Shown: positions 18,379 to 62,790 of the stretch, in pieces
Layout: the number at the start of each line of letters is the position of its first letter
How positions within the stretch are numbered: position 1 is the first letter of the stretch
Assembly: GCA_021735655.1 (NCBI GenBank)
Contig: JAIPGM010000002.1
Coordinates: 192,001 to 256,000, forward strand
Reading direction: 5' to 3'
Length of the DNA stretch: 64,000 nucleotides
Source: Candidatus Omnitrophota bacterium
Lineage (GTDB): Bacteria; Omnitrophota; Gorgyraeia; Duberdicusellales; 4484-171
Program-made: the position numbers and the translations under genes
Notes under the pieces: model-generated
Seen by the model: the letters and a program-made list of their open reading frames with translations, nothing else
What the model was told of the DNA's origin: nothing
Database searches by the model: none

Positions 18379-18763
18379 AGAAGTCGTCAGGGTTGAAAAA
18401 GTTATTGGGGATAAAGTAAGAGTTCAATTTGAAAGAAAAGTTAGTTGCTCTTGTTGTCGTTTAGAATCCGTTTGCGCTCAGAGAAAGGGAAATTTTGATA
18501 TTGAGCGAAGAGGTTTTTCTTTAAAGGCGGGCGATAAAGTAGAGGTTGCTATTGATGGAAATAAAGGGCTACTTGCTGTGGTTTTAACTTTTTTCTTTCC
18601 GGCAGCCGTATTTATGGCTAGCGTAATCATTTTTCAAGACAAAGGCGAGCTGATAAGTTTTTTTATTGCTTTGGTGATTGTCTGCTTATATTATTTAATC
18701 CTTAAACTGATAGTCAAAAGATTTAAAAACAAATTTGAGTTAAAAATTTTAAAAAAGCTATGA
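18368..18763 (+). CDS. RseC/MucC-family protein (Rnf/Rsx-associated)
   Basis: N-terminal Cys cluster CSCCRLESVC plus two C-terminal TM helices; immediately follows rnfB. Confidence 0.6.
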   Translation: MMDKEVVRVEKVIGDKVRVQFERKVSCSCCRLESVCAQRKGNFDIERRGFSLKAGDKVEVAIDGNKGLLAVVLTFFFPAAVFMASVIIFQDKGELISFFIALVIVCLYYLILKLIVKRFKNKFELKILKKL

Positions 18764-19359
18764 ATATAGCAATATTAGCCTCTGGTAATGGCAGTAATTT
18801 TGAAGCAATTGCTAAAGCGATAAGGCGCGGCCAGATTAGGGCAGAAGTGAAACTTTTAATTACTGATAAGCCACAAGCCTTTGCTCGATTCAGAGCGAAG
18901 AAGTTAAAAATAAAAGATATTTTTATTAATCCTGATAATTATCCATCGAGACTTCTGTTTGATAAAAAACTAGTAGAGGTTTTAAAGATTGATAAAATTG
19001 ATTTAGTAGTTTTGGCCGGATATATGAGAATTCTCTCACCGTACTTTGTAAAAAAATATAAAAATAAAATTTTAAATATTCATCCTTCTCTACTTCCGCG
19101 TTTTAAGGGTGTTAACGCTATCGCTCGAGCTTTTAACCATGGATCTAAATTAACTGGGGTTACTGTACATTTTGTGGATAGTAAAGTTGATCATGGACCA
19201 GTAATTCTACAAAGTTCAATTTTAATAAAAAAAAGCATGAAGCTAAAAAGCTTAGAGAAAGAAATTCATAAACTGGAACATAAGTTATACCCCTTAGCGA
19301 TTAAGTTGTTTGCTGAAAAAAAGTTAAAAGTAAGGGGGAGGAAAGTTGCGATTAACTAA
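18760..19359 (+). CDS. purN: phosphoribosylglycinamide formyltransferase
   Basis: ILASGNGSNFEAI N-terminus, formyl transferase fold, 199 aa. Confidence 0.85.
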   Translation: MNIAILASGNGSNFEAIAKAIRRGQIRAEVKLLITDKPQAFARFRAKKLKIKDIFINPDNYPSRLLFDKKLVEVLKIDKIDLVVLAGYMRILSPYFVKKYKNKILNIHPSLLPRFKGVNAIARAFNHGSKLTGVTVHFVDSKVDHGPVILQSSILIKKSMKLKSLEKEIHKLEHKLYPLAIKLFAEKKLKVRGRKVAIN

Positions 19360-19780
19360 GCTTGTTATCTTGGTTTTTGGTTTATTCTTGTTGTTAGGGG
19401 CTGGAGAGTCAGGCCAAATAGTTAAGGCCACGGTCAATAAGAATAAGGTCTCAACAGGAGAATTGTTAATTTATACTGTAACTATTGAGGGTATTTTTAA
19501 AGATCCTCAAGTAACCCCACCAGAATTTAAGGACTTTAAAGTTAGTTCGCAAAGCAATTCGCAAAACTACTATTTTTCTGGATCCGGAACTAAAATAAAC
19601 ATAACGTTAATTTATACATTACTTGCTCTCAAGGCTGGTAATTTTAGTCTTGGCCCAACAGTCATTAAAGATGAGGGGGAAGAGTACAAAAGTAACGTTG
19701 TTGATATTGCTGTAGAGGGTAAGCCTTTTAAGGAAAAAAAGAAAATCCTACCGTATATTGATGAAGGCCTAGAAATTTAA
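19346..19780 (+). CDS. secreted hypothetical protein, BatD-N-terminal-like domain only
   Basis: Signal peptide; weak resemblance to BatD N-terminal beta domain; 144 aa. Confidence 0.35.
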   Translation: MRLTKLVILVFGLFLLLGAGESGQIVKATVNKNKVSTGELLIYTVTIEGIFKDPQVTPPEFKDFKVSSQSNSQNYYFSGSGTKINITLIYTLLALKAGNFSLGPTVIKDEGEEYKSNVVDIAVEGKPFKEKKKILPYIDEGLEI

Positions 19781-21828
19781 GGAATTCTACGTATATTTTC
19801 CTCGGCCTTTCGGGCATTAAGATAATCCCCATACTCATAAAATAAGTCATGAGCTTTTAGGAAATTTTCTTTAGCTTTTTGGTTTTCTCCTAAAGCGGAG
19901 TAGGTTCTGCCCATGCCGAAGTATACCTGCGGAGAATCAGGTTTTATTATTAAAGCTTTACGGAAGTGCTGAATTGCTTTTTTGTATTGAACTAAGTTGG
20001 TATAAGTTTCCCCTAGGCTATAATGTATTTGAAAGTTGTCAGGGTCAAGGCGCAATGCCTTCTCAAGGTAGTTTAGGGCTTTTTGTTGTTCTGAGGCGTT
20101 TTTATTTTTTAGGCCTAGTTCATTATGGGCCTTAGACAGGCTAACATATATATCGGGAGATTCCGGAATTGAAGCAAGGACTTTTTCATATTTAGTAATT
20201 GCTCTTTCGTATTGACCTAAAGTTAAATAAGTATTCGCTAATCCGAGTTCCGCTGAGATAGAGGTTGGGTCTAATCTTAGGGCCTTTTCGAAATTATCTA
20301 TTGCCTTTTGAGAATCGCCTAAAAGTCTATAGACATCGCCCAAAGATAAATAGGTTAGAAAATAATCATCTTTTAGTTTTTGTGACCTTAGAAGATACTG
20401 TAATGCTTTTTGATATTGGCCAAGCCTTAGGTACACACTTCCAATGCTGCGGTAAATCTCTGGGTCTTTAGAATTTTTGGCTTCGGCATTTTCAATTGCT
20501 CGTTCAAGATATTGCAATGCTTCTTCAGGAATTCCTAAATCAGCGTAAATCTTGCTTAAAGCCTCGATGATGCCCGGGTAGTCAGGCTGTGCGAGAAAGA
20601 CCTGTTTGAATTCTTCAAGAGCTTCCTTGGGCCTATCAAGAATGCGGTAACATTCACCTAAAGGAAAATGAATTGTTGGGTTTCTAGGATCCAGTTTTAG
20701 CGCATAATTAAAAGCAGCCAGGGCTTGTTTGTGGCGACCCAAATTCATGTAGGTTTCACCGAGCAGCACTTGTGCGTAGATATAACCTGGTGAAATTTCA
20801 AGAGTTTTTCTACAGAAGGCTATTACTTTGTCGAAATTTTTGTTTTCACCTTGAGAATACCGATAGGCTTGACTTAGATAAAAGTTTGCTTTATAGAGTT
20901 TAAATAGTGTTTTATTACTGTCAGCTTCGGGTGGGTACAAGAAAACTTTGTTAACTTCACCAGTTGATGATTTGAATAAAACTGTTTTTGTTTTTTTATT
21001 AAAGTTATCGTTTATTGTAGCGCGTTTGATTTGGATAAAAGAAGAGTAGTTTTCGACTATTTCTCTAGTTATTCTTTCAACTTCTTTATCGGGCGTTGGG
21101 ATATCCGGACTATACTTTTTAATTCGGACATTAAAATCGACTATTATCCGAGAGCTTTGGTAGCGAACATCAATATCGTTAACTTCAAAGTTATCGTTTA
21201 AGCTCGGGGCCAAAAAGGTTCTAGAAATTCTTTCTTGAATTAGCATAGGAATAAACTCAGCTAAGCCAACATTATATTTGCGGAGGTAACGACCACGATC
21301 ATCTTCTAGTATGTTTTTATCGATAAAGGGAGTTTGAAAAGAAATAATTCGTTTTTCAAATTCATAGGCGGATATGTTAGTCGCTAAACCATAAGTGGCT
21401 AAGGTTAGTCTTATCTGATCAGGAATAAATATCAGTTCGTATTGGTTCATCCTGATTAAATTTATTCCTTTTAGACGTTGGATATCGGATTTAACAAAAC
21501 AATAAAATATTGGCGGAGCATCCATATTGAGAAGGGCTCGTTGTATTGATTGAGAAATTTTTCTGACAGTTTCAGACAAGTCTTCATCAACTTTTCCTTC
21601 TTCGTTTACTTTAAATTTGCCAGCTTCATCAAAAAATTCAACCGGGGCATAAACCCAAAGAGTCTCTCCAACCAGCCAAGTGCTTACTTCGATTTTATGC
21701 TCTTCCCTACAGATTTTTTTTATTATTTCGGCAATATCTTTACGTGAATAGGTTGGTGGGACAGAACAGGAAATTAGTAGAAGAGCGCAAAAACTAAGCA
21801 GGAGGTTTTTGAGAGGTATTTTTTGCAT
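19777..21828 (-). CDS. TPR-repeat lipoprotein (N-terminal non-TPR domain plus about 10 TPRs)
   Basis: Lipobox LLISCS; many TPR units in C-terminal half; overlaps the tandem FtsH gene by about 35 nt (co-operonic). Confidence 0.7.
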   Translation of the reverse strand: MQKIPLKNLLLSFCALLLISCSVPPTYSRKDIAEIIKKICREEHKIEVSTWLVGETLWVYAPVEFFDEAGKFKVNEEGKVDEDLSETVRKISQSIQRALLNMDAPPIFYCFVKSDIQRLKGINLIRMNQYELIFIPDQIRLTLATYGLATNISAYEFEKRIISFQTPFIDKNILEDDRGRYLRKYNVGLAEFIPMLIQERISRTFLAPSLNDNFEVNDIDVRYQSSRIIVDFNVRIKKYSPDIPTPDKEVERITREIVENYSSFIQIKRATINDNFNKKTKTVLFKSSTGEVNKVFLYPPEADSNKTLFKLYKANFYLSQAYRYSQGENKNFDKVIAFCRKTLEISPGYIYAQVLLGETYMNLGRHKQALAAFNYALKLDPRNPTIHFPLGECYRILDRPKEALEEFKQVFLAQPDYPGIIEALSKIYADLGIPEEALQYLERAIENAEAKNSKDPEIYRSIGSVYLRLGQYQKALQYLLRSQKLKDDYFLTYLSLGDVYRLLGDSQKAIDNFEKALRLDPTSISAELGLANTYLTLGQYERAITKYEKVLASIPESPDIYVSLSKAHNELGLKNKNASEQQKALNYLEKALRLDPDNFQIHYSLGETYTNLVQYKKAIQHFRKALIIKPDSPQVYFGMGRTYSALGENQKAKENFLKAHDLFYEYGDYLNARKAEENIRRIP

Positions 21829-24800
21829 ACTTTTTAAAAATTAGTTCTAGTTCAGATTGGGTAAGCTCTTCTTTTTTTAACAATTCACTTGTTAAATGTT
21901 CGAATAAATCTTTTTCTTTTTCTAATAAAGCAACGGTTGATTTAAGGCAATCCTGAAGTAATTCTTGAGTTTCCATATCTAACTTTGATTTCATTTCTTC
22001 AGACAGTAGATTGTTTTCGTTTTGTTCAAATAAAAAGTCACCAATGTATCCTGAACGACCCATGCCCCAACGCCAAACCATTGATCTAGCATACCACATC
22101 GAAGTTTTAAAATCCTGAGAAACACCATTGGTAGTGCTGGCAGTAATTTTCTCAGCAGCATATCCACCAAGAAAAATCTTGATAGTGGACAATAGTTCTT
22201 CCTTGGTGCCGGCGGAACGATCTCCTTTGGTAGCATACCAAGCTACACCTAAAGTTTTGTCTCTTGGAATAATAGATAACTTAAAGGGGAAATTTCCTTT
22301 TCCAAAAAAATACTCAGCTAAACAATGTCCGGCTTCATGGTAGGCGGTGGCCTTAAGCTCCTCGGGGGTTAATTTTAATTTCTTTTTTAAGCCTAATTCT
22401 ATTCTTTCTCGAGCTTCATCGAGCTCTTTCATACCCAGAATAGTTTTTTTCATTTTAGCAGTTAGAAGAGTGCCTTCTTTAATTAAATTAGCTATATCAG
22501 CCGGGGAATAACCCGGAGTAATACCGGCAAACATTTCAGGGTCAATCTCATCTTTGTTATACTTAGTTTTAGAAAGATAAAACTGAAATAACTGCTTTCT
22601 TTCGTCAAAGGTTGGTAAAGAAACATGGAGTTTTCGATCAAACCTTCCCGGCCTAAGAACCGCTTTATCCAAGTTACTTTCATCGGTATTGGTAGCGCCA
22701 ATAATAACAATATTATATTCAGCATCCTTTTCCTTTAAACCGTCCATTTCAACTAAAAATTGGTTTAAAGTTTGATTATGTTCTTGAGTACCGCCGAAAC
22801 CTTTGTCCATAGCCCTTTTGGCGCATAAAGCATCAATTTCATCAATAAAAATTATACAGCCACCTTTGGCTAATGCTTGCTCTCTAGCTTCCCTGAACAT
22901 TTGGCGCACTCGGCTTGCGCCCACACCGACAAACATTTCTACGAATTCTGAACCAGCCTTAGCGATAAAAGGGATCCCTGCCTCATTAGCGATAGCAGAG
23001 GCAAGATAAGTTTTTCCGCATCCAGGAGGGCCAAGCATTAACAAACCCTTAATAATTTGTCCACCCATTTGTTTTAGGTTGGCTCGGTCTTTTATTAAGC
23101 TGACAATTTCTTTGGCTTCGTCTTTTGCGCCTTCCATACCAATGATATCATCCCAACCTATAGAATCTTTTTTTGACTTTTTCATTCCTTCCATTATATA
23201 AGTAAGCCTAGTTTTCCCATGTTTTTTGAAGGTTTCTTCTATTTGATCGTAATCTAACTCTTCTTCTTTTAATAAACGGTTAGCAATTTCATCTAAAATT
23301 ACTTTTTCTCGACGTAATATTTCATTGACTTCATCCAAACATTTATTAATGATATCTTCTTTGTCTCTTTCAGAAATTTGCGAAGGGAAGCCATGTTCTT
23401 GAGTTATACCTCCTGGGCCCGAAGTCCCCATGCCCCACTGATCTACCATTTTCATCGCTAGATTGTTTGCTTGTTTAAGATCTTTCCCTACTCCGGAAGA
23501 TACCGAACCAAAGCGAATTTTTTCAGCAGCATAACCACCAAGAAAACTCTTTATTTGACCTAAAAGATATTCTTTATCCGGGATGTGGCGTTCTTCTTTG
23601 TCCCTTGTCCAGGTAACCCCTCCGGCTGAACGTCTAGGAATAATACTAGCCTTAAAAACATCTTGAGTTGGCACTAAAAAGTAAGTAGCCAGTGTGTGTC
23701 CGGCTTCATGGTAGGCGGCAATTTTTTTATCTTGGAGAGATAACACATATTCAGCTTTTATCCCGATATCGATTCTTTCTTTTGCGTCATGGATGTCGGA
23801 CAAATCAACTTGATTTTTTTTCTTACGGGTAGCAATTAGAGAAGATTCACGAACAATGTTTGCTATGTCAGCTGGGCTATTGCCAACTGTAAAACGAGCT
23901 AACTTAGCAAAATCAATTTTTTCCTTATTGTAGGAAATCTTGGTGAAATAGTATTGTAAAAGATCTTCACGTTCTTTTAACCCGGGGAGCCCAACATAAA
24001 CTTTGCGGTCGAATCGTCCGGGACGCATTAGGGCGCTATCAAGTTCACTCTCGGGAACATTTGTCGCCGCGATTATTACGATATTGTCTTTGGCAGTATC
24101 TAACCCGTCCAATTCAGTTAAAAGCTGATTAACGGTAGCATTATAATCTTGACCGGCACGGCCGCCTCCGGAACTTTCTATTCTCGGTCGGGCGAAAGTA
24201 TCAATTTCATCGATAAAAATTATACAACCACCATCTATTTCAGCGGAGATTCTGGCTTCCTTAAATAGGCTTTTTACTCGATTGGCGCCAACCCCGACAA
24301 ACATACCTTGGAATTCACTACCGGCAACGTGAAGAAAGGGGAGTTTCGTTTCAGTAGCGATAGCTTTAGCCAGATAAGTCTTTCCGCATCCAGGAGGGCC
24401 AATCATTAAAACACCTTTAATAATTTTTCCGCCAACCCGGTCTAAATTAGTATGGTCATTTATGAGCTGAATTACTTCCCAGACTTCCTTCTTTATGTTT
24501 TCCATCCCAATAACGTCAGACCATCTGACATTCACTGATTGCGGTTTTACTTTTTTTGATTTTAATTTATCAAGACCTCCCCCCCAAAGAAAGTATACAA
24601 ATATACTTGTCGTTATTGCACCGGATACAGTACCGACAATTAGCATAAAAAAGATTTGCAGAGGAATACCGGCAAGCATTGATTTACGAAAAAAAGAATC
24701 TAACTGGAAGAAGGTTCGAAGGCCAACAGTGGTTAAAGCAATTATGCTTAGAATTAGGAGAATAGCTACACTTATTATCGTAACTTTTATCCAGTGTAGT

Positions 24801-24841
24801 TTTATATACTTTGTTAATCGTTGATTTGAGCTATTTGCCAT
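21794..24841 (-). CDS. internally duplicated FtsH-like membrane protease: TM-TM-AAA+-M41-AAA+-M41 (start moved to MANSS ATG with GGGAGG RBS)
   Basis: Two copies each of Walker A GPPGCGKT, Walker B IIFIDEID, pore loop MFVGVG, SRH ATN..RPGRFDR and zinc site HEAGH. Confidence 0.85.
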
Positions 24842-24977
24842 GGATTCGCCTCCCGAGATTAAGAATACCATATATTTTTATTATTGTCTACTTCTTAGAT
24901 GTTGCCAACACCTATTTTAATAAGGTTTCCCTGCTCTGTAAGCGATTACATCTATATTCATATATATAAAAAATAGC

Positions 24978-25005
24978 TTGCTAAAACAACCGAATAAGCT
25001 ATAAT
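24978..25005 (+). promoter_or_regulatory. sigma70-like promoter TTGCTA-16-TATAAT, 7 nt upstream of hflK ATG (leaderless)
   Basis: -35 at 24978-24983, -10 at 25000-25005, ATG 25013, no SD. Confidence 0.45.
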
Positions 25006-25012
25006 CTATTTT

Positions 25013-26026
25013 ATGGAATTTCAAAGTCGACAGCCCGATGAAATCTTTCAAAATTTAAAACAAAAATTTAGTGGCCAGAGGCCGAAAGGTTTTTGGTTTC
25101 CTTTACTAATTGGTATTGCTATCTTGTCTATATTTTTAAACGGGGCCGGACTTTCTCCCAATCCTTTTTATACTATTCAGCCAGACGAAGTTGGTGTTGT
25201 TTTACGTTTTGGAAAATTCATCAAGGCCACTAATCCTGGTCTTCATTTTAAGTATCCTTTAATTGAAAGAGTTATCCCAGTTAAGGTTGAGAAAGTTTAC
25301 ACTGAAGAGTTTGGCTTTAGAACTCAATCCCCAGGGGTAAGAACTGTCTATAGCCCGAAGTCGTTTGATGATGAGTCGTTAATGCTTACCGGAGATTTAA
25401 ATGTATTAGATTTAGAATGGATTGTTCAATATAAAATAAGTGACCCTTTCGGTGCTTTGTTTAATATACGAAAATTGGTTAAGGCTATACGTGATGTTTC
25501 TGAGTCAGTAGTTCGAAGATTAGTCGGCGATCATTCTTTTAACGAAGTTCTTACTACCGAACGAATAGAGATAAATAATCAAATTCAAGATGAGATGCAA
25601 GAAATTCTTGATTCTTACAACTGTGGAATTCAAATCGTTAAGGTAAAATTACAAGATGTTAACCCGCCTGACCCGGTTAAACCAGCCTTTAATGAAGTAA
25701 ACCAGGCAAAGCAGGAGCGAGAGAAGTTGAAGAACCAGGCTTGGGAAGTTTATAACCAAAAAATACCACAAGCCAAGGGCGAAGCTCTTAAGTTATTTCA
25801 AGAAGCTGAGGGTTACGCTACCGAGAAGGTTAATTGGGCAAAGGGTGATGCGGAGCGTTTCTTGCTGCTTTATAAAGAATACACCAAAGCTAAAGATGTC
25901 ACCTTGAAACGACTGTACTTAGAAAACATGAGTCAAATTCTTAAAAAAGCTGGTAAAAAATACATTCTTGATCCTAAAGAAAAGGGGATTCTTCCCTTAC
26001 TAAAGCTAGAGAGTCAAAATGAATAA
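25013..26026 (+). CDS. hflK: SPFH/band-7 protein HflK (FtsH modulator)
   Basis: N-terminal TM plus SPFH domain plus HflK C-terminal coiled coil. Confidence 0.8.
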   Translation: MEFQSRQPDEIFQNLKQKFSGQRPKGFWFPLLIGIAILSIFLNGAGLSPNPFYTIQPDEVGVVLRFGKFIKATNPGLHFKYPLIERVIPVKVEKVYTEEFGFRTQSPGVRTVYSPKSFDDESLMLTGDLNVLDLEWIVQYKISDPFGALFNIRKLVKAIRDVSESVVRRLVGDHSFNEVLTTERIEINNQIQDEMQEILDSYNCGIQIVKVKLQDVNPPDPVKPAFNEVNQAKQEREKLKNQAWEVYNQKIPQAKGEALKLFQEAEGYATEKVNWAKGDAERFLLLYKEYTKAKDVTLKRLYLENMSQILKKAGKKYILDPKEKGILPLLKLESQNE

Positions 26027-26966
26027 GAAGTTTGGTTTAATTCCTTTAATAATTATTTTTGTAGTTATTTTGCTAGGCAATCCTTTTTATGTCATAACTG
26101 AAGGCCAACAGGCAGTGATTACTTTATTAGGTAAACCAAAGCGTATAGTTATTGAGTCAGGATTAAAGTTAAAGGTTCCTTTTCTTGAGAAAGTAAATAA
26201 ATTTGAAAAGCGAATATTAGAGTGGGATGGTTACCCTAACGAGATACCAACTAAAGATAAACGTTACATTTGGATTGATACTACTGCTCGTTGGAGAATA
26301 GTCGATGCTTTGAAATTTTTTAAAGCCGCTTCCTCAGAACGTGGTGCCCAAACCATACTCGACGGGATTATTGATGCAGCGGTCAGAGATGCGATTACCG
26401 CTCAGAAATCAACTGAAGTTGTGCGGTCTTCGAACAGGTTACTGGAAAGTCTAAAAACTGCTAAAACCGAAGAAGGCTTTGTTGATGAGAGCGCCTTGGA
26501 TGCAACTGAGATTGGTCGAGACAAAATTCGTGAAGAGATAGTTGAAAAAGCAAGGGGAGACTTAGGCTCTCGCTATGGAATCGAGCTAATTGATGTCAGA
26601 ATTAAACGAATTAATTATATCGAAAAAGTTCAACAGGATGTCTACGAGCGAATGATTGCTGAACGTAAACGAGCCGCTGAGCAATATCGTTCTGAAGGAA
26701 GAGGGATTAGGGCTGATGTTGAAGGGCGTACCGAAAAAGAGCTTAAGTCGATTCTTTCAGAAGCTTATAAGAAGGCTCAAACCATTAAAGGTGAAGCTGA
26801 TGCCGAGTCTACAAAGATTTATGCTGATGCTTATGGGAAAGATCCTGAATTCTTCGCATTTTTAAAAACTCTCGAAACTTACAATGATACCGTTGATAAA
26901 AATACGATAATTATCCTAACTACTGAAGGGGAGTATTATAAGTATTTGAATGCAATCAATCCTTAA
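26019..26966 (+). CDS. hflC: SPFH/band-7 protein HflC
   Basis: SPFH domain; overlaps hflK stop. Confidence 0.8.
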   Translation: MNKKFGLIPLIIIFVVILLGNPFYVITEGQQAVITLLGKPKRIVIESGLKLKVPFLEKVNKFEKRILEWDGYPNEIPTKDKRYIWIDTTARWRIVDALKFFKAASSERGAQTILDGIIDAAVRDAITAQKSTEVVRSSNRLLESLKTAKTEEGFVDESALDATEIGRDKIREEIVEKARGDLGSRYGIELIDVRIKRINYIEKVQQDVYERMIAERKRAAEQYRSEGRGIRADVEGRTEKELKSILSEAYKKAQTIKGEADAESTKIYADAYGKDPEFFAFLKTLETYNDTVDKNTIIILTTEGEYYKYLNAINP

Positions 26967-26993: not shown

Positions 26994-27845
26994 ATGAATA
27001 CTGCAACTTTATTAATATCTTGTCCCGATCAAAAAGGCATAACCGCAAGTATTACCGATTTTATTTATCGGCATCAAGGAAATATTGAACATGCCGATCA
27101 ACATATCGATTTTCAATCTAATATCTTTTTCATGCGGATCGAATGGTCTTTGGATAATTTTGAAATTCCCAAAGATAAAATTAAAGAATCATTCAATTCT
27201 CTAGCTGATAAGTTCAGAATGAACTTTTCGCTTCATTTTAGTTCTAAAATTCCCCGAATGGCAATTTTTGTCTCAAAGCAAACCCATTGTCTCTACGATT
27301 TACTGCTTAAATACAAACAGGGGCACTTGCGTTGCGAGATACCTTTAATAATTAGTAATCATTCCGAAGTTAAAGAAATTGCTAAAAGTTTTAACCTGAA
27401 GTTTTTCTATTCAGTTAAGAATCAAAAAAATAAAGTAGCTTCTGAAAATAAAGAGCTGACCTTACTAGCTAAGGAAAAAGTAGATTTTCTTGTCTTAGCC
27501 AGATACGGACAAATTTTTACCAAAGAGTTTGTTGAAAATTTCCCTAGTCGAATTATAAATATCCATCATTCTTTTTTACCGGCCTTTATTGGCTCAGATC
27601 CTTATCGTCAGGCTTATTCTCGGGGAGTTAAAATTATTGGAGCAACTAGTCATTACGTAACTGAAGCTCTTGATGCTGGGCCGATTATTGATCAGGACAT
27701 TACTAGGGTTAGTCACCGCGACTGCTTAGAAGATTTGAAGCGGGAAGGCCAAGATTTAGAGCGCACAGTCCTAAGTCGGGCAGTTCGTTGGCACCTTGAG
27801 CACAAAATCTTAGTTTATGCTAATAAAACTGTTGTTTTTGATTAA
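26994..27845 (+). CDS. purU: formyltetrahydrofolate deformylase
   Basis: N-terminal ACT domain plus formyl transferase domain, 283 aa. Confidence 0.85.
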   Translation: MNTATLLISCPDQKGITASITDFIYRHQGNIEHADQHIDFQSNIFFMRIEWSLDNFEIPKDKIKESFNSLADKFRMNFSLHFSSKIPRMAIFVSKQTHCLYDLLLKYKQGHLRCEIPLIISNHSEVKEIAKSFNLKFFYSVKNQKNKVASENKELTLLAKEKVDFLVLARYGQIFTKEFVENFPSRIINIHHSFLPAFIGSDPYRQAYSRGVKIIGATSHYVTEALDAGPIIDQDITRVSHRDCLEDLKREGQDLERTVLSRAVRWHLEHKILVYANKTVVFD

Positions 27846-47368: not shown

Positions 47369-48931
47369 ATGAGTAACAAACCCTGGACTACAAAACTCTC
47401 AGTTTTAGACAAAAGAGTTAGTGCTTTTAGCGAAGGCTATCGTCAAAACATTGCTCTTTTGGGTAATGATGCCGAAGAGACAGCTTATCTTTTACAGAAT
47501 TACCGAGAACTAAAAAACCACAATCAATTTGTCTATATCCATATCTCGACAGTTTATGCCGGAAAAAAAGAGTTATTGAAGGCGACAATCCTTTCTTTAC
47601 TCAGTAGCTATGCCGATAAGACTGATAGCCTCGATAATCTTATTTATGCCGTGAGCTCAGTTCTTCCTTTAACTACCGAGAATATAAAAAACTGTCTCAA
47701 GAAAAACTCTATCTGTTTTTTGGATATTTTGGAAATAATTAACGCTTTTATTAACGAAAGTGGTTCACGTTGCGTTTTTATTATCGAAGAATTTCTAGGG
47801 GTAGTTGCTCTCTTTGAAAACTTCTATTCTGATTTCTCAAAGTTTATAATTTTACAACAAAATTGCATGATCATTCTTGCCGCTTCTTCGGAACGATTGG
47901 CTCAAAAAGTTCTTTCTGATGAATTAAATTTACTATTTGGTAACTTTGAGATTATTTCTCTAAGCGAAGAGTCTTTTCTCAATAGCTTCGTTTATTTAAA
48001 AAATTTACTCCCATCAATTACCCCATCACCGTTTTTTTTATCGTTTTTTGCTAACTTTTTGGGTTCAAACTGTATATATTATGACTCTCTGGCTAAAAGT
48101 ATAAAAGACAAGTACCAGTCTGATAATGAAGAGAGCGCAATAATTTCTATATTGGAGGAATTTTTATATAGGCAAGAGACATACTGTTTCCAACGTTTTA
48201 TCAAAAATATAGACAAATTAAAATTTATTTTTAAGGATTTTCAGCCAACCCTTAAATTACTGACGTCGATCAGTCAAGGCTATATGCGTAAAAAAGAACT
48301 CTTAGCTTTAGGGTTTTGTGATTCCAAAGAATTAAATAGCAAATTGCAAAAACTGATTGACTCAAATTACATAGTTAATTTTGGAAATATCTATAAAATC
48401 CGCGATTCTTTATTCTCATTTTGGTTATCACATGTATTCGAACTACACTCTTTATTCCCCTTACATAACCCTAAACAGCGGAAACAATTTTTTAAAGAAA
48501 AACTTAAAAAGGAAATATCTCTTTTTAAAGATGAGTTTTATACGGATTCCTTAAAGAAAGTTTTGCAACTCTTTGCTTCCTTTAAAAATGACACTTTGAA
48601 ACTCGGGAAGACCAGGTACAGCTTGCCGACTATAGAACGAACCAAAACTATTTCCTACCCTCAAAGAGATTTCCACTTTATCATCGGAGAAGGAAAAGAA
48701 ATAATTTTTGCCGGAATCAAAGGTAAAGATGCCGACGATATTGACATGACTGATTTTATTGAGAAGGGAGCAAACATCCGCGGTAAGGGAGTGAAAAAAA
48801 TATTTATATCATTAGGTACATTGCCATCAGCCACACGTTTAATTGCTAAAAATAATAAAATCGCCATTTGGGATCTTCAGGAGCTCAATAAACTTTTACA
48901 TATATATAATAAACCGGTTTTTTCTCAATAA
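47369..48931 (+). CDS. hypothetical 520-aa protein, archaeal-type-ATPase-like with degenerate P-loop and restriction-endonuclease-like C-terminus (DUF234-like)
   Basis: LLGNDAEETAYLL sits where Walker A would be (no Lys); VFIIEEF Walker-B-like; charged C-terminal block. Confidence 0.3.
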   Translation: MSNKPWTTKLSVLDKRVSAFSEGYRQNIALLGNDAEETAYLLQNYRELKNHNQFVYIHISTVYAGKKELLKATILSLLSSYADKTDSLDNLIYAVSSVLPLTTENIKNCLKKNSICFLDILEIINAFINESGSRCVFIIEEFLGVVALFENFYSDFSKFIILQQNCMIILAASSERLAQKVLSDELNLLFGNFEIISLSEESFLNSFVYLKNLLPSITPSPFFLSFFANFLGSNCIYYDSLAKSIKDKYQSDNEESAIISILEEFLYRQETYCFQRFIKNIDKLKFIFKDFQPTLKLLTSISQGYMRKKELLALGFCDSKELNSKLQKLIDSNYIVNFGNIYKIRDSLFSFWLSHVFELHSLFPLHNPKQRKQFFKEKLKKEISLFKDEFYTDSLKKVLQLFASFKNDTLKLGKTRYSLPTIERTKTISYPQRDFHFIIGEGKEIIFAGIKGKDADDIDMTDFIEKGANIRGKGVKKIFISLGTLPSATRLIAKNNKIAIWDLQELNKLLHIYNKPVFSQ

Positions 48932-58340: not shown

Positions 58341-59744
58341 TTAATCTTCTCTTATAATTTCAATAAGAGCCTCCACCACCTGTGGATTAAATTGAGACCC
58401 TTTACTTTCATTTAAGCGCTCGATTGCCTCTGCAACTTCCATAGCCGGCCGATAGGCTCGGACTGAAACCATGGCATCATAAGCATCAGCAACTGAAATA
58501 ATTTGCGTACAAATATCCATTTTTTTACCCTCAATTTTATCAGGATATCCTTTTCCATCGTAGCGTTCGTGATGAGAACGAACAATCGTCAATAACTGCT
58601 CATCAAAGGCCACTGGTTTTAAAATGTGCTCACCGATTATTGGGTGATTTCTGATTATTTCCCATTCTTCTTCGGTAAGACGGGTCTTTTTGTTTAGTAT
58701 GTTTTTCTGAATGCTGAGCTTTCCAATGTCATGAAGCTCAGCGGCTCGCTTAAGTAATTCTATCCTTTCGGGAGATAATTTCATTTTTTGGCCGATTTTT
58801 TCGGCATATTCAACAACCCGATCAGAATGTCCGTGAGTATAGGGATCCTTAGCCTCAAGAATTCGAATTAAAGCCTGCATTGCCCGATAAAAATAATCAC
58901 GCATTTTGTTTTGGGATTTAGATAAACTCTTAGCCATAGTATTAAAAGATTGAGCTAACTCACCAATTTCATCATGCCCCTTAATACTAACTTGATATTC
59001 TAGCTCACCATTAGCTAGATGATGGGTACCTTCGACTAATCTCTCAATACGATCGGTAATTCGCCAAGAAATAATCATGCCCAAAACCACTGAGAGCATA
59101 ATACCGACGATAAAAACTAACATGGCTCGGTTGTGGACTCGCTTGCGCAAATTATAAACCGAATCAGCCATAATATCGACTCCTAACATGGCTATAGCTT
59201 GACCGGCTTGATTAATTATCGGTGCATAACCTGACAAAGTGGCCCCCCACTCATCAATTTCTAACTTTGTGTCAGCCGACGGCCCATCAAAAGCTTTCAA
59301 CATTTCCGGAAAACGTGAGGCATCATATTTGTCACCCGGATAAGAAGTAAGTCCTTGCTCTATATCCTCGGGTGTATAGCCTGAAGGATCAACAATAAAT
59401 TGCCATACCCCCTCCTCTTCTGTCTTAGCTAAGGTATAAATATATTTAATTTGAGGGTTGACAGATCGAACCTTGTTCAGTTTTTCAGCAATTACTTTAA
59501 AATTTTCAGTCTGTATGCCCTTCTTATTTAACGGTATTTGAATGAGCTTATCCGGGTCAACCAGTAAAGCCGCGGTTTGAGCTATGATCTTAAGTTTATC
59601 GCGCAAATCATTAAACTGGCTATTTAAAGTGTATTTATAGATTAGGAAATTACTGAGGGTTCCAGAAAGAAGCATACAAAAAATAAAGGCCAAAGTAACC
59701 TTTACTTGAAAACCACGCAGTGGCTTAAAGGTAATCCGTTTCAT
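58341..59744 (-). CDS. HD-GYP phosphodiesterase with extracytoplasmic sensor and HAMP
   Basis: Two TM flanking sensor domain, HAMP, HDIGK and HHERYDGKGYP. Confidence 0.8.
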   Translation of the reverse strand: MKRITFKPLRGFQVKVTLAFIFCMLLSGTLSNFLIYKYTLNSQFNDLRDKLKIIAQTAALLVDPDKLIQIPLNKKGIQTENFKVIAEKLNKVRSVNPQIKYIYTLAKTEEEGVWQFIVDPSGYTPEDIEQGLTSYPGDKYDASRFPEMLKAFDGPSADTKLEIDEWGATLSGYAPIINQAGQAIAMLGVDIMADSVYNLRKRVHNRAMLVFIVGIMLSVVLGMIISWRITDRIERLVEGTHHLANGELEYQVSIKGHDEIGELAQSFNTMAKSLSKSQNKMRDYFYRAMQALIRILEAKDPYTHGHSDRVVEYAEKIGQKMKLSPERIELLKRAAELHDIGKLSIQKNILNKKTRLTEEEWEIIRNHPIIGEHILKPVAFDEQLLTIVRSHHERYDGKGYPDKIEGKKMDICTQIISVADAYDAMVSVRAYRPAMEVAEAIERLNESKGSQFNPQVVEALIEIIRED

Positions 59745-59808: not shown

Positions 59809-62790
59809 TTAAAACATTTCGATAACCAAAGTAAATTTATCTACCAGTTCAGGATCAAATTGAGTCCCAGAACATCTTCTTATTTCTGCAACAGCTTCTT
59901 CTTTGCTCACGCCTAGGTGATAAGGACGAACATTAGTCATAGCATCATAGGAATCTAAGATAGTAAGTATTCTGCACTCTAAGGGTATTTGTTCCCCTTT
60001 TAATCCAGTCAAATAACCCTTACCATTCCACCACTCATGATGGTAAAGAATCAAATTTGCAATATGCGATAATTCTTTAGAACGGCTAGCTATGATATGG
60101 CCGATCTTTACATGTTCCTTCATTTTTTCATATTCTTTTTCCGATAGTCTTTTTGGTTTAAATAAGATTTTATCCGGTATTCCTACCTTACCTAAATCAT
60201 GCATTTTAGCTAAAAGATCAAGGTTTCTTTTCTCATTGTCAGAAAGAGCTATAGCATCGGCCATTTTATCGGCCAAGACTGAAAGTCTCTCTAGGTGACC
60301 CTGAGATATAAAGTCTCTTTCCGATAAAGCAGCTACTAGCATCTCGATAACCTTATTTTCAGGAATTTCAGGCTTAGCTGAGCGATCCTCATACATATTA
60401 TCGTCGGCTCGCTGATAAACATCATAAACGGTTTCTTTTCCGGTATCTTGAGCGGTGGCCACACCAATTGAGATATGCATCGGGACTACTGGTTTCTTAC
60501 TATTATAAATATTGATTAACTTTTTTATTTTATCTCGTTTAACTAAGGCTTCCTTATAATCAACCTGTGGCAATATAATACAAAACTCATCACCACCAAC
60601 TCGAGCAATCAAATCCATCTTTCTAAAAGGAGTAGTTATGACCTTGGTTGCTGCGACTAATAACTTATCACCACTTTTATGGCCAAAGGTATCATTAACT
60701 AGTTTCAGCCGATCGATATCCAAAGATAAAATACTTAAAGGTAATGAACGGGAAAAATCTTTGCTTAAACGAGCCATCTCCTCAGCAAAAAAGGCACGAT
60801 TATAAATACCGGTGAGCGGATCATAGGAATTAACGTATTTAAGATGCTGCTCGCTTTGTTTTAATAACCTCTCGGCCCTTACGCGTTTTGTGATATCGCG
60901 GATATTGCACTGAATAATTTTCTTACTTCCAACCAAATAAAGACTACTAATTAGTTCAACCTCTACCTTTTCACCATTTTTTTTCTCAAGAGTCAAATTA
61001 TCATAGCGTAGGCTTTTTTCACTCCTTAGTTTTTTAAAAGCTTGCCAAGCAGTGTCATTGTTCTTTGCAAACCCAAGATTGCAAAACTCATTACCAATAA
61101 TTTCCGATTCTGAGTAACCCAACATATTGACTAAGGCTGGATTAACGGCAATTATTTTTTTCGACAAGACATCAATGATCATCATACCATCGCAAGCAGT
61201 TTCAAAAAGACGACGATAGCGAGATTCCGAAGATTGTAGGGCCCTCTCTGCTTTCTTTCGCTCAGTAATATCACTATGTACCTCAACTGCAATTCTACCA
61301 CATTCCGAATGATCAATCAGTGAAGACTTTACATAACACCAAATACGAGCCCCATCCTTCTTTATGTTTTCGACCTCCCCTTTCCATTCGCCTTCCTTTT
61401 TTAAAATAAGTGCAATTTTATCCTTAATTTCCTTAGGGGTTCTATTGCCTGGAGCATTAATTACCGAGATGTCCTTGCCAATCAGCTCCCCGGATTTATA
61501 ACCAAACATTTTTTCAAATTTAGAATTTGCAGAAATAATCTTGGCATCACGCAAACAAACTAAAACAACCCCTTCGGCTAGATTTTTCATTACTTCATTG
61601 TTAATGACCAACTCATTTTGGATTTTTTGTTTTTCGGTAACATCTTCTCCAGAGCCTAATGTTGAAATAATTTTCCCGTCATTGTCACGTAAAAATGAAT
61701 TATGCCAACCAATGATTCTTTTTTCTCCAGAAGCAGTCAAAACGTTGTTTTCGAAATATTCAACCGGAGCCAATTCCCCAGAAATAAGCTGACTATATAC
61801 TTCTTTAACTTTAGCCCTTTCATCTTCAGGAATAAAATTATCAAACCAATTTTTTCCAATAATTTCTTGTTCAGAATAACCTAATATTTCACATCCCTTT
61901 TTATTGATTAGGCTGACTTTCTGATCAGAATCAATCACGATAATTATGACATTGGCAATTTTAAGATATTCCTGAATGCGCGCCTTTTCCCCCTTTATAT
62001 CTTTTAGGGCTTTTCTCTGCTCATCAATATCTTGCACTTGAAAAACAAAATACAAAGGCCTACCGTCAACACCACAAACTAATGAAGCAGTTAAAAGAAT
62101 CCAGATTACTTCTCCGTCTTTGCGAACATAACGTTTTTCAATGCAATAATAAGGTAAACTCCCCTTTAGCATCTTCTCAACGTAATCGATCTCAATGCCG
62201 ATGTCCTCAGGATGAGTTATTTCCTGAAAATTACTACTTAATAATTCTTTCTTCGAATAGCCTAAGATTGAACACAAAGATTTATTAACTTTTAAAAAAG
62301 TACCATTAGGCTCAACTAAAGCTATGCCGATTCCGGAAACCTCAAACATAGTTTTAAAACGCGATTCACTTTCGTTTAAAGAATGGATTAATTCTTGATT
62401 TTTGGTGGCGTCTTGAAAGATACCTTGGACTACCGGTTTGCCACCAGAAAAAGTTAACAAAGTAGTTATCAAGACTGGTTTTACTTCTCCGGTTTTAGTT
62501 ATTATCTCTGCCTCGCGGATAATTTCCCCATTTTGCTTTATCAGCCGTTTAAACATTTTAACGTATTCTTGGGATTTCTCAGGCGGATGGATTGAAGACT
62601 GGTGCATTCCAATAAGTTCTTTTCTTTTTCTGGCAAAAAGATTTTCAGCGGCCTTGTTACACTCTATGATTAAACCAGATTCAGCTTCGGCCCAAAGGAT
62701 AGCAACTCGTGTATTATCGATTAAGGATTTTTTTAACATAAAACCGCCAAAAATAAAAAAAGCGTCAGTTTTTCTAACGCTTTTGAACAT
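59809..62790 (-). CDS. multi-PAS GGDEF plus HD-GYP bifunctional c-di-GMP enzyme (start uncertain: 62790 or Met18 at 62739)
   Basis: About 5 PAS/PAC units, intact GGDEF (RVGGDEF), HD-GYP (HDLGK, HHEWWNGKGY). Confidence 0.8.
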   Translation of the reverse strand: MFKSVRKTDAFFIFGGFMLKKSLIDNTRVAILWAEAESGLIIECNKAAENLFARKRKELIGMHQSSIHPPEKSQEYVKMFKRLIKQNGEIIREAEIITKTGEVKPVLITTLLTFSGGKPVVQGIFQDATKNQELIHSLNESESRFKTMFEVSGIGIALVEPNGTFLKVNKSLCSILGYSKKELLSSNFQEITHPEDIGIEIDYVEKMLKGSLPYYCIEKRYVRKDGEVIWILLTASLVCGVDGRPLYFVFQVQDIDEQRKALKDIKGEKARIQEYLKIANVIIIVIDSDQKVSLINKKGCEILGYSEQEIIGKNWFDNFIPEDERAKVKEVYSQLISGELAPVEYFENNVLTASGEKRIIGWHNSFLRDNDGKIISTLGSGEDVTEKQKIQNELVINNEVMKNLAEGVVLVCLRDAKIISANSKFEKMFGYKSGELIGKDISVINAPGNRTPKEIKDKIALILKKEGEWKGEVENIKKDGARIWCYVKSSLIDHSECGRIAVEVHSDITERKKAERALQSSESRYRRLFETACDGMMIIDVLSKKIIAVNPALVNMLGYSESEIIGNEFCNLGFAKNNDTAWQAFKKLRSEKSLRYDNLTLEKKNGEKVEVELISSLYLVGSKKIIQCNIRDITKRVRAERLLKQSEQHLKYVNSYDPLTGIYNRAFFAEEMARLSKDFSRSLPLSILSLDIDRLKLVNDTFGHKSGDKLLVAATKVITTPFRKMDLIARVGGDEFCIILPQVDYKEALVKRDKIKKLINIYNSKKPVVPMHISIGVATAQDTGKETVYDVYQRADDNMYEDRSAKPEIPENKVIEMLVAALSERDFISQGHLERLSVLADKMADAIALSDNEKRNLDLLAKMHDLGKVGIPDKILFKPKRLSEKEYEKMKEHVKIGHIIASRSKELSHIANLILYHHEWWNGKGYLTGLKGEQIPLECRILTILDSYDAMTNVRPYHLGVSKEEAVAEIRRCSGTQFDPELVDKFTLVIEMF

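Follow-up and report, generated by a model that had tools for sequence, protein, structure and literature searches.

A double-module FtsH with a conserved lipoprotein partner in Candidatus Omnitrophota

The window (the whole stretch of Candidatus Omnitrophota DNA analysed, 64 kb) carries an ftsH gene whose product has two complete AAA–M41 units in one polypeptide, in the slot where other Omnitrophota have a single-module FtsH. We are highly confident that this double ftsH is real and conserved and encodes an FtsH-type AAA+ zinc metalloprotease anchored in the membrane; the complete explanation, adding proposed roles for the two modules and a mode of assembly, we hold at a probability of about 0.6. 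No description of a double-module FtsH was found in the searchable literature.

The first in-frame ATG, at 24871, gives an alternative ORF of 1025 aa (21794..24871, minus strand). The start at Met11 (ATG at 24841) has a GGGAGG 6 nt to its 5′ side and gives the 1015-aa form, identical to the database protein P0001, which NCBI labels only as “AAA family ATPase.” The chain runs TM–TM–AAA–M41–AAA–M41: Pfam finds two stretches each of AAA, AAA_lid_3 and Peptidase_M41, and TIGR01241 (FtsH_fam) matches two stretches, so that the HMM domain count bears out the tandem architecture proposed in the initial annotation. Aligned with each other, the halves share 48% identity over 458 aa (E = 3e-137). Numbered on the 1025-aa form, the paired motifs are GPPGCGKT at 158 and 614, MFVGVG at 190 and 646, IIFIDEID at 217 and 673, RPGRFD at 283 and 740, and HEAGH at 388 and 845; the third zinc ligand is an aspartate in both M41 domains (D454 and D910, numbered, like H835 and its neighbors, on P0001).

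Features of the double ftsH locus, in positions of the window
Feature	Coordinates	Strand	Details
Partner lipoprotein ORF	19777..21828	−	683 aa
Partner C-terminal TPR array	19777..20901	−	residues ~310–683; Pfam TPR_1, TPR_2 and related families
Partner signal peptide and conserved N-terminal domain	20959..21828	−	~270 aa; lipobox LISC (Cys21)
Double FtsH CDS	21794..24841	−	1015 aa plus stop, start at Met11; from ORF list
Peptidase M41 domain 2	21809..22375	−	residues 823–1011; H835, E836, H839, D910
AAA module 2 and lid	22376..23173	−	residues 557–822; all motifs intact
Inter-module junction	23156..23221	−	residues 541–562; short AF2 helix 547–558, lower confidence
Peptidase M41 domain 1	23198..23746	−	residues 366–548; HEAGH and Asp454 intact in the window's clade
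AAA module 1 and lid	23747..24541	−	residues 101–365; Walker A, Walker B, MFVGVG, RPGRFDR intact
N-terminal membrane hairpin	24584..24793	−	TM1 residues 17–41, loop 42–58, TM2 59–86; from hydropathy
Divergent intergenic region ftsH/hflK	24842..25012	.	171 bp
hflK	25013..26026	+	337 aa; TIGR01933 288.5 bits (cut-off 159.4); Band_7
hflC	26019..26966	+	315 aa; TIGR01932 280.6 bits (cut-off 134.4); Band_7

The protein resembles canonical bacterial FtsH, known from the structures of E. coli, T. maritima, T. thermophilus and A. aeolicus (PDB 7vhp, 2ce7/3kds/7tdo, 2dhr and 4ww0), in its two-helix N-terminal membrane anchor, in its classical AAA modules with Walker A/B, aromatic pore loop and SRH arginines, and in its Asp-zincin M41 domains with HEXXH plus Asp. 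Either module can be aligned over its full length with FtsH of known structure (E as low as 1e-99; ≈35–37% identity in the fold search), and in the AF2 model (pLDDT 80.6) each gives a TM-score of ≈0.8 when fitted onto protomers of FtsH, AFG3L2 and YME1. Unlike canonical FtsH, however, it has two such units per chain rather than one and an obligatory downstream lipoprotein gene, each module alone scores below the curated FtsH equivalog, and the periplasmic domain of ≈70 aa is replaced by a loop of 17 aa. That loop, which the initial annotation had put at about 20 aa, has the same length in 54/54 aligned homologs (the AF2 helices on either side span residues 5–46 and 49–86), and PF06480 (FtsH_ext) was matched by Pfam search neither in the double FtsH nor in any of its best 120 homologs.

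Proteins of the same APAP architecture number 58, from independent NCBI, JGI, ENA and Logan assemblies; almost all are labelled Ca. Omnitrophota, and they align at 46–70% identity over ≈99% coverage. Because the module 1s and the module 2s each form a single clade (bootstrap 65 and 88, respectively), the trees indicate one old event: a tandem, in-frame duplication of the AAA + M41 cytosolic unit, once, early in one lineage of Candidatus Omnitrophota. The deep order of the tree is weakly supported (0% bootstrap for an exclusive clade of both modules, 31% for module 2 with the single-module proteins), so the single-module FtsHs could be secondary reductions. The junction between the modules is poorly conserved in sequence and conserved in length, with 21–27 residues between the invariant F538 and W563.

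The two modules are not equivalent across the family. In M41-2, HEXXH and D910 are intact in all 54 aligned doubles (H835, E836, H839 and D910 are invariant), while in M41-1 the HEXXH is intact in only 19/54, and in the other 35 the first zinc histidine is gone (YEAGH, YEAGR and other variants). The initial annotation's claim that every catalytic signature is intact in both copies therefore holds for the window's clade but not for the family. Family-wide, AAA-2 is more conserved than AAA-1 (0.706 vs. 0.636, Wilcoxon p = 3e-7), and M41-1 and M41-2 do not differ (0.57 vs. 0.545, p = 0.3); an M41-1 that is mostly dead yet as conserved as its counterpart points to a structural role for this domain. 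In the window's protein, where the motifs are intact, both modules would be active as ATPases and as proteases. Module 2, always catalytically intact and with the more conserved AAA, is the likely core protease, and module 1 would be an accessory module next to the membrane with a dispensable protease site, since most of the family has lost the residues.

The same short TM hairpin is common to AP (24 proteins), APAP (58), AAAP (28), AAAAP (6) and APPAP (1) forms, and these occupy the same slot. In the APAP loci (the window, L030, L032, L036, L037) the order is purU, ftsH, lipoprotein gene, purN, rnf; in L039, with a single AP, eno–divIC is followed by ftsH, a 294-aa gene, purN and rnf; in L040 (AAAAP) and L041 (AAAP), eno–divIC is followed by the ftsH variant, a gene of 357 aa or 324 aa, respectively, and purN. 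By position, the double ftsH is thus the ortholog of the short-loop, single-module FtsH found in other Omnitrophota and, the slot (ftsH, lipoprotein, purN, rnf) being shared, the lineage's version of the phylum's FtsH. Rather than an odd extra at an otherwise ordinary FtsH locus, the gene is one among several forms with multiple modules that occur there.

The lipoprotein gene starts inside ftsH and shares its last 35 nt (21794–21828), just as the initial annotation had it. It lies directly downstream of an FtsH-type gene in 17/17 informative loci, its HMM matches 11/11 downstream genes (E from 1e-12 to 1e-143), and wherever a lipoprotein locus has upstream sequence (6/6) the FtsH gene abuts or overlaps the lipoprotein start. 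From the overlap, the two genes would be co-transcribed and are probably translationally coupled. What is conserved in this partner, initially described as a TPR lipoprotein, is the lipoprotein itself with its ≈270-aa non-TPR domain, which has no Pfam family and is found in 587 clusters; the TPR tail is present in four of the partners read (window, L001, L032, L036), missing in 7–8 (L030, L037, L034, L038, L039, L002, L040, L041) and lineage-specific. A role as substrate-delivery adaptor, also suggested initially, fails because the signal peptide and lipobox mark the protein for export, which makes direct feeding of a cytoplasmic AAA ring impossible. The partner resembles LapB/YciM of E. coli as a TPR protein linked to FtsH (in LapB the link is functional), but LapB has cytoplasmic TPRs, conservation in the partner lies outside its TPRs, and LapB models score only 58–66 bits against it (cut-offs 363–474). 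The ≈270-aa domain and the 17-residue loop would be the only periplasmic part of the system.

On the other side, bona fide hflK and hflC (overlapping by 8 nt) are divergent neighbors of ftsH, which recalls the E. coli HflK/HflC–FtsH holoenzyme. The spacer measures 171 bp if ftsH starts at Met11 and 141 bp if it starts at the first ATG, and its sigma-70-like hexamers, counted on both strands, show no excess over shuffled sequence (23 found, 20.2 expected). The divergent arrangement reported earlier stands for the window but not as a family feature: it occurs only in the window, L001 and L032/33, was absent from eight other locus types checked, and is limited to a subclade of three close relatives. 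In E. coli, HflK Arg191 contacts residues 62–64 of the FtsH periplasmic domain (PMC12048511), a domain absent from the double FtsH.

Could a canonical FtsH elsewhere do the housekeeping and bind HflKC, leaving the double FtsH as a specialised extra protease? Scores of 425 and 440 bits for the modules and 493 for the single-module ortholog, all below the FtsH equivalog cut-off of 600, would fit, as would the noncommittal NCBI name and the missing domain that HflK contacts in E. coli (PMC12048511). We nevertheless consider it unlikely: at all the Omnitrophota loci examined this conserved slot is occupied by a gene of FtsH type, PF06480 is absent throughout the best 120 homologs as well, and hflKC stands divergent beside the double ftsH in three independent relatives, which argues for a functional link between them; the search for a second FtsH, covering 64 kb of the 322,746-bp contig, found none within the window. 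Far less probable is cleavage of the chain at the junction, leaving one FtsH in the membrane and releasing a soluble protein like FtsH, the two co-assembling or acting separately. E. coli FtsH does trim its own C-terminal tail, and the junction is variable and modelled with lower confidence by AF2, but neither a conserved cleavage motif nor a conserved internal start was found there, its constant length suggests a tether, and since 58 clusters have kept the fusion, the covalent link would seem to be important. That two adjacent ftsH genes were joined by mistake, through a collapsed assembly, a frameshift in sequencing or faulty gene calling, is effectively refuted, even for a metagenome-assembled genome: halves sharing only 48% protein identity cannot be collapsed repeats, module 2 lacks the membrane anchor that a separate ftsH would bring with it, and the ORF is nowhere split in two, its junction being continuous and of conserved length in 58 proteins of the same architecture from independent assemblies and sources.

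For the assembly of the double FtsH we slightly favor, at even odds, a hexamer with four coaxial tiers (AAA1/M41-1/AAA2/M41-2), because the TM-AAAx3-M41, TM-AAAx4-M41 and TM-A-P-P-A-P forms could be built only by tiers above a C-terminal AAA–M41 core. Tandem classical-clade AAA modules in one polypeptide are shared with type II AAA+ proteins (p97/Cdc48, NSF, NVL, ClpA/ClpB), which set the precedent of hexameric tiers stacked on each other, one of them often the dominant motor, and taken alone the AAA modules have strong scores to Cdc48/p97; in the double FtsH, however, one complete protease ring would separate the AAA tiers and another would follow them, and no type II machine is known to be so built. 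A trimer, in which three chains form one FtsH-like double ring with modules 1 and 2 alternating, has somewhat less than even odds. It would have 6 sites for ATPase and 6 for protease activity but no more than three membrane hairpins, and would amount to a covalently linked form of the alternating hetero-hexamers of chloroplasts and cyanobacteria (type A/B) and of the mitochondrial m-AAA proteases (Yta10/Yta12, AFG3L2/SPG7). Like the double FtsH, hetero-hexameric FtsH and the pseudo-protease FtsHi comprise diverged modules of which one can lose its zinc site and keep its ATPase, although there the polypeptides are separate, each with its own anchor; the Ycf2–FtsHi motor chain (PDB 8xku) is among the structural matches. 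It is always M41-1 that lost catalytic residues (35/54), its AAA keeping all motor motifs, and a shared proteolytic chamber explains this simply. Divergence to 48% identity with each module monophyletic is as expected for obligate hetero-partners, the 21–27-residue junction could reach from one protomer to its neighbor, provided that the C-terminus of M41 is close to the rim, and engineered single-chain ClpX rings are functional. Against the trimer, it does not extend to the positional orthologs with 4 AAA, 3 AAA + one M41, or A-P-P-A-P; it halves the membrane hairpins, yet hairpin, loop length and lipoprotein partner are conserved as in the single-module forms; and natural tandems of classical-clade AAA modules (p97, NSF, Pex1/6) stack. 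AF2 places the modules confidently neither side by side nor otherwise (pTM 0.52). In most of the family, a competent AAA-1 in the stacked hexamer would translocate into a dead M41-1 chamber and an axial route to AAA-2 would be needed, a pattern more simply explained if the modules alternate in one ring around a common chamber.

In the window, the large ORF encodes a double FtsH, a single chain for which Pfam returns two AAA (PF00004), two AAA-lid and two Peptidase_M41 (PF01434) stretches and the NCBIfam FtsH model (TIGR01241) two matching stretches, a full M41 domain lying between the two AAA modules. Walker A, Walker B, the MFVGVG pore loop and RPGRFDR (the SRH arginines) each occur twice, and both M41 domains have HEAGH and the third-ligand Asp, the zinc sites being H378/E379/H382/D454 in M41-1 and H835/E836/H839/D910 in M41-2. 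Domain counts and motifs are as the initial annotation had read them, and the loss of catalytic motifs from one copy, which it had named as contrary evidence, is not seen: both copies in the window protein keep them all. The membrane anchor is on module 1 (the N-terminal AAA-M41 unit) only, and consists of two N-terminal TM helices (from hydropathy; residues 5–46 and 49–86 in the AF2 model) joined by a loop of 17 residues in 54 of 54 aligned homologs, close to the 20 or so first proposed. Pfam finds no FtsH_ext (PF06480) in the double FtsH, and positions 1–151 of the TIGR01241 profile are unmatched. The TIGR01241 total of 858 bits passes the cut-off of 600 only through summing of the two modules, with module 1 alone reaching 425.5 bits, module 2 (the C-terminal unit) 440, and P0104, a single-module ortholog, 492.7. 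Since modules and single-module ortholog all fall under this equivalog cut-off, the whole clade is a divergent FtsH subfamily, which accounts for the NCBI label “AAA family ATPase”.

GGGAGG lies upstream of the second in-frame ATG (24841), and the product from there is identical to P0001, a database protein of a Candidatus Omnitrophica MAG whose contig is 322,746 bp long. A sigma-70-like hexamer pair would have transcription begin close to the first ATG, which favors Met11 as the start; promoter and terminator scans gave no excess over shuffled sequence, and this goes for the sigma-70-like consensus matches of the region too. An internal translation start at the junction between the modules was considered and rejected, there being no well-spaced Shine–Dalgarno sequence and no conservation of the Met residues. 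The 683-aa ORF that follows shares 35 nt with the 3′ end of ftsH, as claimed.

Coordinates of the double-FtsH locus, of other features in the window and of two positional orthologs
Feature	Position	Strand	Product or detail
Large ORF (double FtsH), first ATG	21794–24871	-	1025 aa
Double FtsH, second in-frame ATG	21794–24841	-	1015 aa
Partner ORF (lipoprotein)	19777–21828	-	683 aa
Lipoprotein domain of partner	20959–21828	-	
Sigma-70-like hexamer pair	24862–24908	-	TTGGCA-17 nt-AATAAT, ending at 24880
hflK	25013–26026	+	
hflC	26019–26966	+	
Formyltransferase gene	18760–19359	+	
Formyltransferase gene	26994–27845	+	
BatD-like ORF	19346–19780	+	144 aa
ORF	47369–48931	+	520 aa
HAMP-HD protein	58341–59744	-	
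PAS/GGDEF/HD protein	59809–62790	-	993 aa
P0041, positional ortholog	L041:6001–9306		1101 aa; three tandem AAA, one M41
P0029, positional ortholog	L040:6001–10110		1369 aa; four tandem AAA, one M41

The protein is no artefact of assembly: its halves are 48% identical in sequence, so a collapsed repeat is impossible, and a search that took in 5.8 billion proteins found dozens of full-length homologs (46–70% identity, ~99% coverage) in independent sources, namely NCBI, JGI, ENA and Logan assemblies. The named ones are nearly all Omnitrophica/Omnitrophota, with one labeled Aureabacteria (a PVC-group phylum) and one Deltaproteobacteria. With architectures called by module HMMs on the best 120 matches (“A” for AAA and “P” for M41), the spread of orthologs that had been left for checking comes to 58 A-P-A-P proteins, alongside 28 A-A-A-P, 24 A-P, six A-A-A-A-P and one A-P-P-A-P. 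The last (P0027, 1217 aa, from ENA, on one 7,121-bp contig) has YEAGH at 378 and 571, the extra M41 copy being dead, then the second AAA and a live HEAGH at 1033; as a single cluster, it may be an assembly or recent-duplication artefact. In a neighbor-joining tree of AAA-M41 modules, rooted on three solved canonical FtsH sequences, the 58 module-1 sequences form one clade (bootstrap 65) and the 58 module-2 sequences another (bootstrap 88); in the multi-AAA forms the terminal modules make up a third, separate clade (bootstrap 100). One clade per module indicates, as far as the tree goes, a single ancient duplication; an exclusive clade of modules 1 and 2 was recovered in no bootstrap, and one of module 2 with the single-module proteins in 31%. 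A scan of species-representative genomes with the single protein was of little help, giving only two true relatives (L001 and L002), and its remaining 27 loci were unrelated AAA proteins from Bacteroidota, Spirochaetes and others, useless as outgroups.

All 54 aligned doubles keep the ATPase motifs in module 1 and module 2 alike, and H835, E836, H839 and D910 of the second protease site are invariant in them. The first protease site is intact in 19 of the 54 and lost in 35, all of which have Tyr for the first His, 11 also being without the second His and 9 without the Asp; the window protein sits in the clade that retains both sites. M41-1, mostly dead, is conserved like M41-2 (0.57 vs. 0.545, p = 0.3), which argues for purifying selection on a non-catalytic role, and conservation is significantly higher in AAA-2 than in AAA-1 (0.706 vs. 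0.636, p = 3e-7). With the invariant second site, the mostly lost first site and the better conserved AAA-2, module 2 looks to be the proteolytic core and module 1 an accessory unit close to the membrane.

Gene order was read at 11 loci around FtsH variants. The doubles (the window, L030, L032/33, L036 and L037) have purU, ftsH, a small or TPR-tailed gene, purN and rnf, while eno-divIC precedes the other architectures: ftsH, a 294-aa gene, purN and rnf with the single-module P0104 (L039), the ftsH variant, a 357-aa gene and purN with four AAA (L040), and the ftsH variant, a 324-aa gene and purN with three (L041). This common slot for every architecture makes them positional orthologs, and the short TM hairpin is likewise common to all. 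The lipoprotein family downstream of the P0041 and P0029 types is that found beside the double FtsH; the last AAA has all motifs, and in 23 of 28 A-A-A-P proteins the second is without the aromatic pore motif. We found no description of these three- and four-AAA forms with M41 in the searchable literature. In the window, two formyltransferase genes bracket the ftsH-lipoprotein pair; in the orthologous loci their Pfam content is purN-like and purU-like, and the bracket is kept across double-FtsH loci.

The 683-aa partner encoded directly 3′ of ftsH begins with a signal peptide and the lipobox LISC, whose Cys21 is at least 90% conserved in an alignment of 61 partner sequences. Pfam has no family for its first ~290 residues, after which TPR repeats follow. 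The genes 3′ of ftsH at all 11 loci match an HMM of this N-terminal domain (E 1e-12 to 1e-143), and the TPR tail is on four of the 11 (the window, L001, L032 and L036) and absent from seven, so what is conserved in the partner is the new lipoprotein domain, with the TPRs as an extra. Of the TPR lipoprotein first proposed as an adaptor or substrate-delivery partner, the conserved 3′ neighbor thus stands; the TPRs do not generally, nor does delivery in the cytoplasm, since for an exported partner the parts of FtsH within reach are the membrane hairpin and its 17-aa loop, not the cytoplasmic motor. The TPR protein also falls short of the curated LapB/YciM models (NF008756, 66.5 vs. 474 bits; NF008757, 58.4 vs. 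363 bits). A metagenome scan from a three-sequence lipoprotein alignment gave eight loci, and in all six with upstream sequence an FtsH gene ends at or overlaps the lipoprotein start. While a word-indexed search with the domain gave two matches only, an exhaustive HMMER search gave 587 cluster representatives (clusters at 50% identity), 297 of them at E ≤ 1e-10, with lengths of 260–300 or 540–710 aa, and the few named proteins among them are Omnitrophota hypothetical proteins. The AF2 model of the domain (pLDDT 89.9, pTM 0.85) is confident and consists of repeated alpha-beta-beta units; the domain would merit its own family definition.

Some smaller observations concern the lipoprotein and its surroundings. 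The predicted fold of the family, which takes in the window domain and P0123–P0272, has only a partial likeness to OsmC and to BON and ring-building-motif periplasmic modules, DolP, OsmY and PrgK/EscJ being the members considered for superposition. In P0181 (1154 aa, JGI) the lipoprotein domain (999–1152) comes after long TPR arrays, the reverse of the order in the window; this protein has no evident N-terminal signal peptide and ends before the domain is complete. A BatD-like ORF (PF13584, E = 1.4e-14) is convergent with the lipoprotein gene in the window, the two 3′ ends overlapping by 4 nt, and a BatD-like gene also follows the lipoprotein gene in L030 and L037.

The divergent hflKC reported on the other side of ftsH is indeed present, both genes being bona fide by their scores against TIGR01933 (hflK, 288.5 bits; cut-off 159.4) and TIGR01932 (hflC, 280.6 bits; cut-off 134.4), with PF01145 (SPFH/Band_7) in both products. 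In E. coli, Arg191 of HflK touches residues 62–64 of FtsH, within the periplasmic domain (residues 31–97; PMC12048511). This contact region has no counterpart in the double FtsH, and the doubt raised earlier about an HflKC interaction is justified by the absence of the domain. The divergent adjacency occurs also in L001 and L032/33 and in none of the other loci, which makes it a feature of a subclade; it is suggestive of a functional link of HflKC to the double FtsH rather than a defining family trait, and the gene pair seems either to have entered the interval from purU to ftsH in these loci or to have dropped out of it in others. How HflKC couples to an FtsH without periplasmic domain is a testable question.

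The AF2 model of the double FtsH has a mean pLDDT of 80.6 with all domains folded, relative domain positions not being fixed (pTM 0.52) and confidence being lower at the junction (residues 541–562). Superposed on protomers of FtsH, AFG3L2 and YME1, either module gives a TM-score of ~0.8. The length of the junction is conserved, at 21–27 residues between the invariant F538 and W563, similar to the 20–24 residues of the linker from TM2 to AAA-1. The catalytic fragment of T. maritima FtsH without its TM region is monomeric in solution (PMC8943139).

We slightly favor a stacked hexamer, with a chance of roughly one in two, in which tiers of AAA and M41 modules would lie along one axis. The A-A-A-P, A-A-A-A-P and A-P-P-A-P forms could be built by tier addition only, the hairpin and partner show the same conservation as in the single-module forms, and where classical AAA modules occur in natural tandems, they stack. 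A trimer with modules 1 and 2 alternating around one ring is a real though rather doubtful alternative: a shared chamber would be the simplest account of a live AAA-1 before a dead M41-1, and FtsH paralogs often assemble as alternating hetero-hexamers with pseudo-protease subunits, but such a ring does not extend to the orthologs with added modules. Comparing the two modules position by position for conservation gave no surface-specific signal that separates the two assemblies. The double FtsH has two AAA per chain, as do Type II (double-ring) AAA+ ATPases, but with a full M41 domain between them; stacking of the kind seen in the directly apposed rings of Type II proteins would be a prediction for it.

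A broader reading, which we hold only tentatively and think unlikely as a whole, is that the Omnitrophota FtsH locus encodes a series of axially extended AAA+ proteases, each with the same hairpin and C-terminal AAA-M41 core and with one to three extra hexameric tiers between (A; A-A; A-A-A; A-P; A-P-P). On this reading the double FtsH would be built of four tiers, two motors enclosing a protease ring that may be live or dead. The exported lipoprotein of the new fold family would stand in for the FtsH periplasmic domain, fastening the protease to the envelope and in some lineages to HflKC as well.

FtsH, essential in many bacteria and organelles, is to our knowledge the only membrane-anchored AAA+ protease, and every characterized FtsH that we know of pairs a single motor with a single protease in each chain. 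No description of the tandem double FtsH was found in full-text literature searches that also covered Omnitrophota FtsH, and the databases hold its sequences under generic names. It has the chemistry and the folds of FtsH; its architecture, the series of multi-module forms sharing a locus and the lipoprotein as obligatory partner are undescribed. A natural covalent tandem, with orthologs of three and four motors and one protease, bears on what the number of rings, the alternation of subunits and dead protease sites do to an AAA+ protease, questions hitherto approached, as far as we know, only via engineered single-chain rings or organellar hetero-hexamers. The uncharacterized lipoprotein family, with its 587 clusters and no Pfam model, is the obligatory genomic partner of these FtsH forms. 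Omnitrophota are uncultivated and often ultra-small bacteria, which limits any other view of their envelope quality control.

No second FtsH is found within the 64-kb window, whose other genes are ordinary chromosomal ones, and Rfam returns two tRNAs only. One 520-aa ORF is without a Pfam match at E ≤ 1e-5. The 993-aa protein has five PAS, a GGDEF and an HD-GYP-type HD domain, and with its HAMP-HD neighbor it is ordinary cyclic-di-GMP signaling, bearing no relation to the double FtsH.
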